Positions 17,814 through 50,514 of a stretch of 64,000 bases of DNA are shown here, in pieces. The translations under genes and the position numbers were made by a program. Source of the stretch: an uncultured delta proteobacterium (GTDB taxonomy: Bacteria > Myxococcota > UBA727 > VGSZ01); the NCBI GenBank assembly GCA_963775425.1, contig CAVZJB010000004.1, forward strand, positions 512,001 through 576,000. Reading direction: 5' to 3'. Under the pieces are notes generated by a model. That model did no database searches. It was not told the origin of the DNA and was given only the letters and a program-made list of their open reading frames with translations. Every line of letters begins with the position of its first letter. Positions within the stretch are counted from its first letter, which is position 1.

Positions 17814-19823
17814 CGCCGTCGCCGACCCGGATCCGGGCGCCCGTCTTGCTCGTCGACGACCGCGCCGAGGATCTCGCCGTCCTCGAGGCCGTGCTCGACG
17901 CGCCGGACATCGAGCCCGTGTGCGCCGCGTCCGGGATGTCGGCGCTGCGGCACCTGCTCGATCGTGACTTCGCGGTGATCCTGCTCGACGTGCACATGCC
18001 CGGCATGAGCGGGTTCGACCTCGCCGAGATCATCAAGCAACGGGACCGATGCAAAGATACGCCCATCGTCTTCCTCACCGCGGACAGCGACGACAGCTTC
18101 ATCACGCGCGCCTACGCCGTCGGCGCCGCCGACTTCCTGCAAAAGCCGATGCATCGGGAGGTGGTGCGGACCAAGGTCGGTGTCTTCGTGGAGCTGTTCC
18201 GGAGAGCCGAGGCGTTGCGGGCAGCGGAGCGCCGCGAGCGCGATCGCCAGCTCTCGGAGCTCGTGCGCAAGAGCGACGAGCGCTACAAGAACCTCGCCGA
18301 GGCCATTCCGCAAATCGTCTGGACGGCGGCGCGCAGCGGCGAGGTCACGTATTACAACCGGCGCTGGCACGACTTCACGGGGTTGCCCGATGAGCCGCCC
18401 CCGCCGTGGACCGCCGGCCTCCACCCCGACGACGTCGTCCTCTGTGAGCGCGAGTGGCGCGACTGCGTCTCGCGCGGCGCGAGGTACGAGGGCGAGTGTC
18501 GCATGCGCTCTGCCCGGGGCGACTATCGCTGGCACCTGTGCCGCGCGGTCCCGGACACCGACGAAAACGGCAACGTCATCGGTTGGCTCGGCACACACAC
18601 GGACTTTCACGATCTGCGCACGGCGCTCGAAGCCGCCGACAACGCCCGCGTCCGAGCCACGTTCCTCGCCGAAGCCAGCGAGCTCCTCTCCGCGTCGCTC
18701 GACTATCCCGCCACCCTCGCGCGCGTCGCCCGCCTGCCCGTGCCACGGCTCGCCGACTGGTGCGTGGTCGACGTGAACGACACCGGCAGGCATGAGCTCG
18801 CCGTCGCGCACATGGACGCCGATCGCGAGCACGCGCTGCGTGAGCTGTTCGCGGCCCCCAACAAGCCGCTTTCCCACGTCGACGGGAAGCCGAACGGCTG
18901 CGCGAACGGCCACAGGGACGTCGGCGCGGACGACGGCGCGCTGCGGGAGCTCGCCGCCTCGTCCATCCTGCAGTGCCCGCTGGCCGTCCGCGATCGTGTC
19001 CTCGGCGCCATGACGTTCGGCTCCTCCTCCCGCACGCTTGGCGAAGGAGACCGCCGCACCGCGGAGGACCTCGCGCGCCACGCGGCGCTCGCCGTCGACA
19101 ACGCGCGCCTCTATCTGGCGGCGCAGGACGCGTTGCACGAACGCGACGATTTCCTTTCCATCGCCGCGCACGAGCTGCGCACGCCGCTCACCACGCTCCA
19201 GCTCCAGCTCCAGAGCCTGCAGCGTCGCATCTCGGCCGGAGAGGCCGCGCGCGCCAAGATCGAGTCCGCCGTGCGCCAGGGCCAGAAGCTCGCCGGTCTC
19301 ACCGAGCGGCTGCTCGACGTCTCCCGCATCGTCGCGGGGCGCTTGAGCCTCGAGCTCGAGGAGCTCGAATCTCACGGACCTGGTCCGCGACATCGTCGAG
19401 CGCTTCACGCTGGAGGCCTCACAGGCCGGCTGCGTCCTCGAGCTCGCGTCCGACGGGCCCATCCGCGGCCGCTGGGATCGGCTCCGCGTCGAGCAGGTGG
19501 TGATGAACCTCCTGTCGAACGCCCTGAAGTACGGCCGCGGTGCGCCGGTTGCGCTGGTCGTCCAGCGGCGCGACGACGTCGCATGGATTGGCGTGCGCGA
19601 CCAGGGCATCGGCATCTCCGAGGAGGACCTGCCGCGCATCTTCGAGCGCTTCGAGCGCGCGGTGACCGCGAGGCAGTACGGCGGCCTCGGGATCGGGCTG
19701 TTCGTCGCGCGCCAGATCGTCGAGGCCCACGGGGGCTCCATCCGGGTCGAGAGCCGCGTCGGGGGCGGCTCGGCGTTCACCGTCCAGCTCCCCCTCGCGG
19801 CACAACCCGGAGAGACAGGATGA
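17810..19823 (+). pseudogene. REC-PAS-GAF-HisKA-HATPase hybrid kinase with a +1 frameshift at 19367-19371 (possibly a sequencing error)
   Basis: Domains are intact up to LSLELEEL. Removing one A from GAATC restores DLTDLVRDIVERF...EQVVMNLLSNALKY...DQGIG...GGLGIGL to the stop at 19823. Confidence 0.85.
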
Positions 19824-20224
19824 GCCTCCCGCGCCCCGTCATGATCGTCGAGGACGACCCGGACATCCGGGCGGCGCTGGCGGACGTCCTCGCCGAGGAC
19901 GGCCACACCACCATCACGGCCGCCAACGGACGCGACGCCCTCGACCAGCTCCACGCGTCGTCGGTCGCGCCGTGCGTGATCGTCCTCGATCTCATGATGC
20001 CCGTGATGGACGGCTGGCAATTCGCCGCGGGCCTGCGCGAGGTCTCCGCGTGGTCGGACATCCCCATCGTGGTGGTCTCCGCCGGCGACGACATCGAGGC
20101 GCACGCCGAGGCGCTCGGCGCCCACGGCCACCTGCGGAAGCCCGTCGACCTCGACAACCTCCTCGCCACCGTCGTGCGCTGCGCTCAGGGAGACGGCGAC
20201 CGAGGAGAGCCGCAGCTCAATTGA
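19820..20224 (+). CDS. Single-domain response regulator (REC)
   Basis: ATGA overlap. VMIVEDD, IVLDLMMPVMDGW, VVVSA and LRKPVD motifs. Confidence 0.9.
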   Translation: MSLPRPVMIVEDDPDIRAALADVLAEDGHTTITAANGRDALDQLHASSVAPCVIVLDLMMPVMDGWQFAAGLREVSAWSDIPIVVVSAGDDIEAHAEALGAHGHLRKPVDLDNLLATVVRCAQGDGDRGEPQLN

Positions 20225-20356
20225 CTGGGCTCAATTGACTGGGCTCAATTCGACTGGGCTCAATTGACTGGGCTCAATTCGACTGGGCTCAATTCGACTG
20301 GGCTCAATTGACTGGGCTCAATTCGACGGGGCTCAATTGACGGGCTCAATCGACGG
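20215..20356. repeat. Ten-copy 13-15 bp tandem array GCTCAATT(C)GACTGG between convergent genes
   Basis: Ten units counted. The first contains the REC stop codon and the last contains the clpA stop codon. Confidence 0.95.
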
Positions 20357-49538: not shown

Positions 49539-49769
49539 TCACCCGGAGCGTGGCACCGGGTCCTCTTCCGGATGCGCTCCCGCGACCTCGCCGGTGTCGT
49601 GCGTCCGCGACGCGAGGATCTTCAGGGCCTTCTCCAGACGAGCGACCGTCTCTTCGAGGACGCTCACGCGTTGCTCTTTCTCGACGAGCGCCTGGTGCAG
49701 GTCCTCGATCGATTGGTCGTGAAAAGCGAGCTTGGTCTCGATCTCGACGAGTCTCTCGTTGTCGCTCAC
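49539..49769 (-). CDS. slyX: SlyX family protein
   Basis: RLVEIETKLAFHDQSIEDLHQAL coiled coil with an EEDPVP-type C-terminus. GTG start. Confidence 0.85.
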   Translation of the reverse strand: MSDNERLVEIETKLAFHDQSIEDLHQALVEKEQRVSVLEETVARLEKALKILASRTHDTGEVAGAHPEEDPVPRSG

Positions 49770-49808
49770 GGGTTGCCTCGGGTACGTTGGCTGTGGGGGA
49801 TCAACATC

Positions 49809-50514
49809 ATGCACGACGTCGACGATGAGGGCAGCCTCGTTCCGCTTTTCCTGTCGGTGGGCGCCACCCTGGCCGCGTCCACCGAAGCCCTGCTCCGCTC
49901 CACCACGCGCACGCTCGATCTCGAGAGCAGCGAGGGCATCGTGCGCCGCTGGCGCCGGCGCATCTTCCGCGCGGGCGATCACACCATCGACGTCGAGGGC
50001 CGGGAGAACGTCGAGCACGGCCGCGCCTACCTCGTGATGTCCAACCATCGCTCGCTCCTCGACATCCCCGCCGTGCTCGCGGCGTTTCCCACGCCCATCC
50101 GCACGCTGTCGCCCGTGTTGTCGCGCCTCGGCTTCCTCCGCGACGTCGACGACGCTCGCGAGCGGCTGCGCGAGGGCATCTCGGTCTGGCTCGCGCCCGA
50201 GGGGCGCCGCTTCCACGACGGTGCGCTCCACGACTTCCGCCGCCGCACCTTCGAGCTCGCGCTCGACCTCGGCGTGCCCATCGTCCCGATGTGGATCGAG
50301 GGCACCGATCAGAATCCGCAAGCGCGGCTCTTTGCGCTTCCTGCCCAAGCGCCACGTCCACGTGAAGATCGGCCCGCCGCTCGACGCCGACGTCGACGAC
50401 GCCGAGCTGCTCGTCACCCGCGTGCGCGCGGCGCTCCTGGCGCTCTCGCCGTTGATGACGGCGACGACGCCTACGCCGGCCACGCTCGAGCACCCACCCA
50501 CGCTCGCAGCGTAG
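49809..50514 (+). pseudogene. PlsC-like lysophospholipid acyltransferase with a +1 frameshift at 50312-50316 (possibly a sequencing error)
   Basis: NHRSLLD (HX4D), PEGRR and VPIVP motifs. Removing one A from CAGAATCC gives GTDQIRKRGSLRFLPKRHVHVKIGPPL to the stop at 50514. Confidence 0.8.

Follow-up and report, generated by a model that had tools for sequence, protein, structure and literature searches.

In a 64,000-nucleotide stretch of DNA from an uncultured Myxococcota bacterium (the window), three plus-strand genes lose their reading frame, each at a GAATC. Does the surplus adenine at these sites belong to the organism's DNA, as a lesion or a recoding signal, or was it written in by the assembly, and if so, what provoked it? 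The preliminary description of this stretch had noted that deleting one A from each GAATC recreates GATC and restores the gene, and had read the three sites as consensus errors revealing a partial modification of GATC. The letters that it quoted are present at all three sites, which lie in the following features.

17810..19823, plus strand: hybrid sensor kinase gene (Response_reg, PAS, GAF, HisKA, HATPase_c), with its true end at the stop codon 19821-19823 in the shifted frame
19367..19371, plus strand: GAATC with surplus A (CTC GA[A]T CTC), which interrupts the kinase after HisKA and ahead of HATPase_c; classified as +1, with GC3 phase, Pfam on both pieces and the G017 homologue as evidence
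44758..45724, plus strand: putative lipoprotein gene with a hydrophobic N-terminal stretch ending ...PTAGC
45513..45517, plus strand: GAATC with surplus A (CAG [A]ATC TCC) in the putative lipoprotein gene, classified as +1, with GC3 phase and translation of both frames as evidence
49836..50514, plus strand: PlsC-family acyltransferase gene, at least its domain-bearing part (stop codon 50512-50514 in the shifted frame; the 5′ boundary is not the fixed gene start)
50312..50316, plus strand: GAATC with surplus A (CAG [A]ATC CGC) close to where the PlsC-type acyltransferase domain ends, with GC3 phase, Pfam and homologues as evidence

Both GC3 phase and translation placed a +1 move of the coding frame exactly at the GAATC of each gene, with the phase jumping from 1 to 2 at ~19367, from 0 to 1 at ~45513 and from 2 to 0 at ~50312, which bears out the three breaks first described. 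At 19367, HisKA stopped at residue 509 in an upstream piece of 519 residues, HATPase_c (107 bits) was found in the next frame, and the homologue in genome G017 aligned with a single one-base gap at the site, reading GGATCTC. At 50312, the upstream piece has 159 residues, of which the Acyltransferase match covered 104-154, ending five residues before the break, and the surrounding block was one base shorter in six of six homologous sequences (five from relatives and one in-genome paralogue), which downstream are too diverged to show the GATC itself. At 45513, the support for the frameshift consists of reading frame and codon usage; a search of 11 relatives gave no DNA homologue, and a Pfam search with the lipoprotein pieces returned nothing over the cut-offs. 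The genes are otherwise intact, as had been stated, with one caveat: at 19367 the unshifted (wrong) frame happens to stay open until 20224, and gene calling would therefore yield a chimaera of 804 residues rather than a broken gene, an error that carries no stop-codon flag.

The window contains 314 GATC and 18 GAATC/GATTC sites, and among the latter three shift the frame by +1, nine are in frame, four are of low confidence and two lie at the window edge. We found no further frameshift-like events in the window; each of the remaining same-strand frame changes was accompanied by a stop codon no more than 44 nt from the boundary. Because the 18 pentamers make up 0.14% of the window, the odds that three of three random indels would fall inside them are ~3e-9, or, by the same arithmetic on the window counts, ~1e-6 with a tolerance of 15 nt.

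We then tallied frameshift contexts over the whole source genome (G000; a Myxococcota metagenome-assembled genome of 8.26 Mb in 18 contigs, 94.5% complete), the check that the preliminary description had proposed. The enrichment was strong and specific to GAATC. A +1 shift was found at 79 of the 513 confidently coding GAATC/GATTC sites (15.4%, a rate that rests on these 513 sites, since 1499 of the 2024 in the genome could not be classified), as compared with 0.6-2.1% at seven control words: CAATC (20/1113), GAATG (11/535), GAATT (17/1187), GAACC (40/4993), GACTC (24/3274), GATC (133/21115) and GAAGC (102/17912). An independent classifier based on GC phase returned 59 of 411 at the motif versus 0.59% overall. 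When the scan started instead from frameshift-like events, the motif lay within 15 nt of 55 of the 187 '+1' events and of none of the 188 '-1' events, and a search for k-mers enriched near the events that lacked GAATC (132 '+1' and 188 '-1') yielded only words resembling ribosome-binding sites and weak noise. The 79 shifted sites carried GAATC on the sense strand in 30 cases and on the antisense strand in 49, and fell in every codon phase; ~7 to 10 of them are ordinary gene boundaries. The three breaks in the window are thus almost certainly members of a genome-wide set of ~70 false frameshifts in which GAATC is written for GATC.

Which genes are broken bears directly on whether the organism could carry these shifts. 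Scanning 69 loci for Pfam domains across the break, we found eight at which a single domain was continuous over the site, its two parts matching adjoining stretches of the profile (CarA GATase, 83/84; GatB_N, 87/88; MnmG, 313/316; DnaJ_C, 82/87; 5′-nucleotidase, 75/77; S8, 180/187; cyclophilin, 63/85; BshC, 146/165) and six more at which known multi-domain enzymes were split (Mur ligase, MetH, GlmS, RelA/SpoT, MutS2 and an enolase-type enzyme). The essential genes gatB, carA, mnmG, dnaJ, glmS and that for the Mur ligase are among those split inside conserved domains, and relA/spoT and glyS are also broken. In relatives, the gatB block was one base shorter in seven of seven sequences (CAGATC in four) and the carA block in nine of nine (CAGATC in four, with all three nearest-genus genomes among them). 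Within the genome itself, two repeat copies of 1672 bp with 99.3% identity read CAGAATC and CAG-ATC; this was the one clean GATC/GAATC difference among 167 one-base indels in a self-comparison of 62 repeat pairs. A metagenome scan with a piece of GatB returned 80 loci, of which the best was 58% identical and hence no conspecific sequence, in a collection that may omit records close to this genome.

Taken together, the specificity for one motif, the splitting of essential genes, the occurrence on either strand and in any phase, and the relatives that are one base shorter point to consensus insertions, and from these sequence comparisons we conclude that the extra A is very probably neither a lesion nor a recoding signal, in strong support of the error reading first offered for the three sites. 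If the GAATC sites were instead real mutations, produced by a site-specific insertion process at GATC, the assembly, as the sole sequence available, would simply be correct as written; this would, however, require simultaneous frameshifts in the conserved domains of the essential genes named above, of relA/spoT and glyS and of others, with no compensating second shift (the frames remain shifted to the natural stop), while the closest relatives have GATC and near-identical repeat copies differ at the very base concerned. We consider such a process very unlikely. Still harder to credit is an extra base that is real and skipped at expression, through programmed +1 ribosomal frameshifting or transcript editing at GAATC. 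One short motif common to all of the breaks is what such skipping would predict, but a translational signal requires the sense strand and a fixed phase, whereas GAATC was antisense at 49 of the 79 sites and the sense-strand sites differ in codon phase, as in the window, where the codon boundary follows the T at 19367 (GA[A]T C) and the G at 45513 and 50312 (G [A]ATC). Strand and phase contradict a programmed +1 ribosomal frameshift.

The practical consequence of consensus insertion is that ~70 genes are falsely broken in a species-representative genome, some of them silently mistranslated, which affects pseudogene counts, metabolic reconstructions and claims of 'novel truncated proteins' drawn from it. 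A GAATC or GATTC together with a +1 shift in codon phase provides a simple screen for such false breaks. Homopolymer-length indels in long-read assemblies are a familiar cause of false pseudogenes, and the insertions described here resemble them in that genes are fragmented by indels of a single base, the added letter being a copy of its neighbour (A to AA). The GAATC site, however, is no homopolymer, and homopolymers in this genome showed only a mild rise with length, with G/C runs of six shifting +1 in 2.4% and -1 in 5.1% of cases, compared with 15.4% at the motif.

The genome has 37,812 GATC sites, and the frequency of the error depended strongly on the bases around the site. The GAATC rate varied more than 100-fold with the flanks, from 34 per 1000 half-sites when TCA precedes GATC to 0.1 per 1000 when GC does, and was favoured above all by a preceding CA or TC and a following pyrimidine; doubly favourable words (CAGATCTG, n = 66, versus CAGAATCTG/CAGATTCTG, n = 4) showed no clear synergy. 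This dependence suffices to explain why most GATC sites are clean without invoking partial modification, and the 'partial' in the earlier proposal is not borne out.

Whether modification of GATC is involved at all is a separate matter, and we regard the link as plausible. In the mechanism that we propose, the surplus A would be absent from the organism's DNA, the underlying data would be long reads, and basecalling or consensus building would write some GATC as GAATC (GATTC on the other strand), the true sequence presumably being GATC at every such site. N6-methyladenine in GATC would provoke the miscall, with the methyl group donated by one of the lineage's two orphan adenine methyltransferases. 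The chance of a miscall would depend on the neighbouring bases, so that only a few GATC per thousand would cross the consensus threshold. The doubled base is the one on which a GATC adenine methylase would act. The statement as a whole, a consensus artefact at GATC provoked by N6-methyladenine, is the one towards which we lean.

The two candidate enzymes in the genome are both orphans, one of the D12 class (gene at G000:C5:46415-47422) and one of the beta class (gene at L012:1447-2358). The D12-class methylase (PF02086, 113 bits) has a DPPY motif and no nuclease family in its neighbourhood, and it is conserved across the order (25 of 31 genomes, including some listed at 0.3-2.5 Mb). Against the NCBIfam 'dam' model (TIGR00571) it scored 20.6 bits, below the cut-off of 114.85, which places it outside the canonical Dam subfamily, and searches by sequence and by profile found no relative among solved structures. 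The best solved relative of the beta-class DPPY methylase (303 residues) is CcrM, at 171.7 bits, in a match that spans only residues 13-258 of the 366-residue chain. Dam (GATC) and CcrM (GANTC) are orphan adenine methyltransferases, and the likeness to them lies in a solitary D12-class enzyme with DPPY that is conserved in the order and a solitary beta-class enzyme closest to CcrM; the differences are the score below the dam cut-off and the partial cover of CcrM, and both enzymes are candidates by sequence alone. The other chemistries that had been considered lost ground. We found no match to DndC or DndD (TIGR03183 and TIGR03185; dndA, dndB, dndE and ssp lay outside the search) and none to C5 DNA methyltransferases (PF00145) in this 94.5%-complete genome, which weakens the case for Dnd phosphorothioation, which calls for dndC and dndD, and for C5-cytosine methylation of GATC. 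N6-adenine methylation keeps its two candidate enzymes after this search for modification genes, of the kind that the preliminary description had suggested.

The same consensus artefact could also arise with no modification, from a context bias of the basecaller, polisher or consensus step that inserts an A at (C)A-GATC-Y and TC-GATC-Y words, in which case it is an ordinary technical artefact and no feature of the organism. A rate that changes more than 100-fold with the flanks is what one would expect if the local word drives the error, and both methylases are candidates only, the D12 enzyme being below the dam cut-off and without a solved relative. Published methylation footprints of nanopore reads also look different, as the methylation-linked assembly errors described for R10.4.1 are mainly C-to-T and G-to-A substitutions (PMC11610603). 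Against a pure context bias, the full G-A-T-C core is needed (CAATC, GAATG, GAATT and GAACC remained at background), and this core is a palindromic methylase-type site rather than a repeat or homopolymer, the latter being only mildly affected. Two low-contig relatives can be read either way. In G013, which has the D12 orthologue, none of 17 confident CAGAATC sites was shifted; a further 23 were low-confidence calls, these 40 being drawn from the first 41 of its 453 sites with the omission of one overlapping its neighbour. This favours context bias, whereas the lack of the signature there and in G006, in which the query used found no D12 orthologue (0 of 9 confident sites shifted, 31 of low confidence, among the first 40 of 83), suggests that the error is not general to this lineage's assemblies; because the codon model was trained on G000 and the platforms are not given, the comparison separates nothing. 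We hold context bias without modification to be possible, though not the probable cause.

The nearest known counterparts are systematic errors that modification induces in nanopore assemblies. 'Modification-mediated errors' have been described (bioRxiv 10.1101/2022.05.20.492776), and Hammerhead makes use of strand-specific miscalls in R10.4.1 data (PMC11610603). The insertions reported here resemble such errors in recurring genome-wide at one short methylase-type motif, being absent elsewhere and surviving in the consensus at some sites only, and differ from those described in PMC11610603 in being insertions rather than substitutions, on a platform that is not given and with a modification that is putative. 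In that paper, the error-based detector failed to pick up the Dam motif GATC, for which the authors offered an over-strict cut-off or the motif's presence in the basecaller's training data as explanations; when a 5mC GATC motif of S. aureus was re-tested, the result implicated the cut-off (PMC11610603). Our search of the literature outside supplements, which in PMC11610603 include figures on GATC read accuracy that could bear on the point, found no printed GATC-to-GAATC insertion.

If modification is the cause, the error spectrum offers a first guess at the target (GATC) of one of the two conserved orphan adenine methylases. A more specific version, in which the errors are the footprint of near-complete GATC N6-adenine methylation by the uncharacterised D12-class orphan enzyme, inherited order-wide, seems to us tentative and rather unlikely. 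Were it true, it would imply a lineage-wide epigenetic system like that of Dam or CcrM, and the methylation motifs of uncultured bacteria might be read from the error spectra of deposited assemblies alone. PacBio kinetics have revealed N6-methyladenine at GATC in contigs assigned by binning to another uncultured Myxococcota lineage (PMC12772301).

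The genome studied here (8.26 Mb in 18 contigs, 72% G+C, listed completeness 94.55%) is so rich in G+C that the reading frame could be followed from composition, with the third codon position at ~95% G+C. At each of three GAATC pentamers in the window (C4 512001–576000), the high-G+C phase shifted by +1 and stayed shifted until the natural stop:

Site 1, window 19367, hybrid sensor kinase: Pfam HisKA ends ten residues ahead of the break, and HATPase_c comes next, in the new frame; the alignment with the homologue in a relative (G017, GGATCTC) has one single-base gap
Site 2, window 45513, putative lipoprotein: shift read from frame and codon usage alone
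Site 3, window 50312, PlsC-family acyltransferase: Pfam acyltransferase domain ends five residues ahead of the break; 6/6 homologous sequences are shorter by one base

The three sequence strings quoted for these sites in the preliminary description were all found where it had placed them. Because every remaining same-strand frame change within the window had a stop codon at its junction, and these are gene boundaries, 3/3 frameshifts in 64 kb fell inside motif pentamers (GAATC/GATTC), which make up 0.14% of the window. Beyond the break at site 1, the wrong frame runs on for a further 285 codons, to 20224, past the true gene end at 19823, so that an ORF caller would give an 804-residue protein with a false C terminus (window 17810–20224) and leave the break unflagged. 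The PlsC-type Acyltransferase domain (window 49836–50312) was matched as two separate stretches, and the stretch after the NHRS motif seems short; because codon phase does not change along it, the cause is divergence rather than a further frameshift.

To tally frameshift contexts genome-wide, as the preliminary description had proposed, we classified the frame on either side of every word occurrence. By G+C-phase likelihood in 120-nt flanks, 59 of the 411 confident GAATC/GATTC sites shifted by +1, compared with 0.59% for pentamers overall; once words containing a stop codon were set aside, AGAAT, GAATC and AATCT alone stood out, and these are overlapping pieces of one motif. A second classifier, based on codon usage trained on 1505 long ORFs, placed a +1 shift at 79 of 513 confident sites (15.4%; of all 2024 sites, 1499 were of low confidence and 12 lay at contig ends), compared with 0.6–2.1% for control words. 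The pattern initially noticed at three sites was real, and much stronger than a reader of the window could have known.

Control words shifted by +1 (second classifier)
CAATC, 20/1113
GAATG, 11/535
GAATT, 17/1187
GAACC, 40/4993
GACTC, 24/3274
GATC, 133/21115
GAAGC, 102/17912

For CAGAATC, the same classifier gave 39 shifted, 14 unshifted and 74 unclassified sites. When we scanned from the events instead, the '+1' frame changes with no stop close by numbered 187, and the motif lay within 15 nt of 55 of them; of the 188 '−1' changes, it accompanied none. No other words were enriched near the remaining frame changes in this genome-wide scan except ribosome-binding-site-like ones, so those changes are mostly real gene junctions. 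Homopolymers had only a mild effect that rose with length (G/C runs of 4, +1 0.7% and −1 1.5%; runs of 6, 2.4% and 5.1%; runs of 7, 5.5% each), which may represent a gene-end effect or a further and far weaker class of error.

Recoding at GAATC was rejected, as 49 of the 79 motifs were antisense to their genes and codon phases differed (with / for the codon boundary and the surplus A in parentheses, GA(A)T/C at site 1 and G/(A)ATC at sites 2 and 3); the shift is a DNA-level or data-level phenomenon. Seven of the 79 shifted sites had a stop or start right at the site and were gene boundaries, and by Pfam three more resembled neighbouring genes (loci L054, L038 and L081). We scanned both flanks with Pfam at 69 loci (the 79 minus the seven boundary sites and three window sites), and at eight a single domain spanned the site at adjoining profile positions.

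Domains spanning the site (profile positions on either side)
CarA GATase, 83/84
GatB_N, 87/88
MnmG, 313/316
DnaJ_C, 82/87
5'-nucleotidase, 75/77
Subtilase, 180/187
Cyclophilin, 63/85
BshC, 146/165

At six further loci the halves were consecutive domains of a single familiar enzyme (Mur ligase, MetH, GlmS, RelA/SpoT, MutS2 and an enolase-type enzyme); other affected genes include GlyS, CarD and FabD, and 28 of the 69 loci had no family on either flank at E ≤ 1e-5. Loss of every one of these genes at the same time is impossible for a free-living bacterium. Relatives were shorter by one base for gatB (7/7; CAGATC in four, CAAATC in three) and for carA (9/9; CAGATC in four, including all three nearest-genus genomes), and a 1672-bp repeat reads CAGAATC in one copy and CAG-ATC in the other, the two being 99.3% identical. 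We therefore rejected real lesions, given the breaks within CarA, GatB, MnmG, DnaJ, GlmS, Mur ligase and others and the one-base-shorter relatives; the same evidence bears out the earlier suggestion of consensus errors. The GAATC frameshifts are very probably artefacts of this assembly and, as biology, are not a feature of the organism. For data hygiene the errors do matter, since some seventy genes are affected in a genome that serves as its species representative.

The same GAATC frameshift context occurs in both copies of a 9.56-kb duplication (C11 ~109546–119097 and C12 ~56088–65640; 98.45% identity, 139 mismatches, 9 gaps), which could reflect either true paralogy or redundancy in the assembly.

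Among the 37,812 GATC sites, the detected rate per thousand half-sites depended on the preceding bases (CA 6.8, within which TCA 34, ACA 13 and CCA 8.5; TC 1.5; GA 1.1; GC 0.1) and was greater with C or T following than with A or G, as expected of a miscall arising from signal or kinetics. The flanking bases thus account for the GATC sites left clean, making the 'partial' modification of the preliminary description needless.

That GATC modification underlies the errors is a reasonable lead, which taken as a whole we judge slightly likelier to be right than wrong. The error occurs only at the complete palindrome G-A-T-C, the adenine of which is doubled, as might happen if a polymerase or pore reported a methylated A twice. 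The proposed search for dnd and GATC methyltransferase genes found no DndC, DndD or C5 methylases in the 94.55%-complete genome, but yielded two candidate adenine methylases: a solitary beta-class DPPY enzyme, whose best solved relative is CcrM, and a second orphan:

C5 46415–47422, minus strand (L011 1225–2235; L097 1501–2508), D12-class DPPY adenine methyltransferase (PF02086, 113 bits)

The neighbours of this solitary 336-residue enzyme are a gene without a family and a PLD-like gene whose start resembles a signal peptide. The enzyme is kept in 25 of 31 genomes of the order (48–68% identity), including genomes listed at 0.3–2.5 Mb; it scores under the NCBIfam dam cut-off, and no sequence relative was found among solved structures. 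As precedent, PMC12772301 reports GATC m6A, detected through PacBio kinetics, for contigs that were binned to a different uncultured class of Myxococcota. Against modification, neither methylase has a target on record, and the nanopore methylation footprints in the consulted portion of PMC11610603 are substitutions; Dam GATC was missed there by the error-based detector, for which its authors suggest an over-strict cut-off or a basecaller already trained on the motif. We found no printed description of a GATC to GAATC insertion in the literature. Also against it, so far as the sequencing platforms of the two assemblies are comparable, relative G013, which has the D12 orthologue, had 0 of 17 confident sites shifted (40 of 453 looked at).

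Relative G006 likewise had 0 of 9 confident sites shifted (40 of 83 looked at), with the same proviso on platforms. Its CAGAATC words come in twos, one on each strand, with a separation of 95 to 96 nt at five loci and of 48 nt on C8 (for example C7 505231/505327, C8 226763/226811, C9 74714/74808, C15 140828/140924, C16 216620/216714 and C18 367624/367719), which suggests a dispersed inverted-repeat element.
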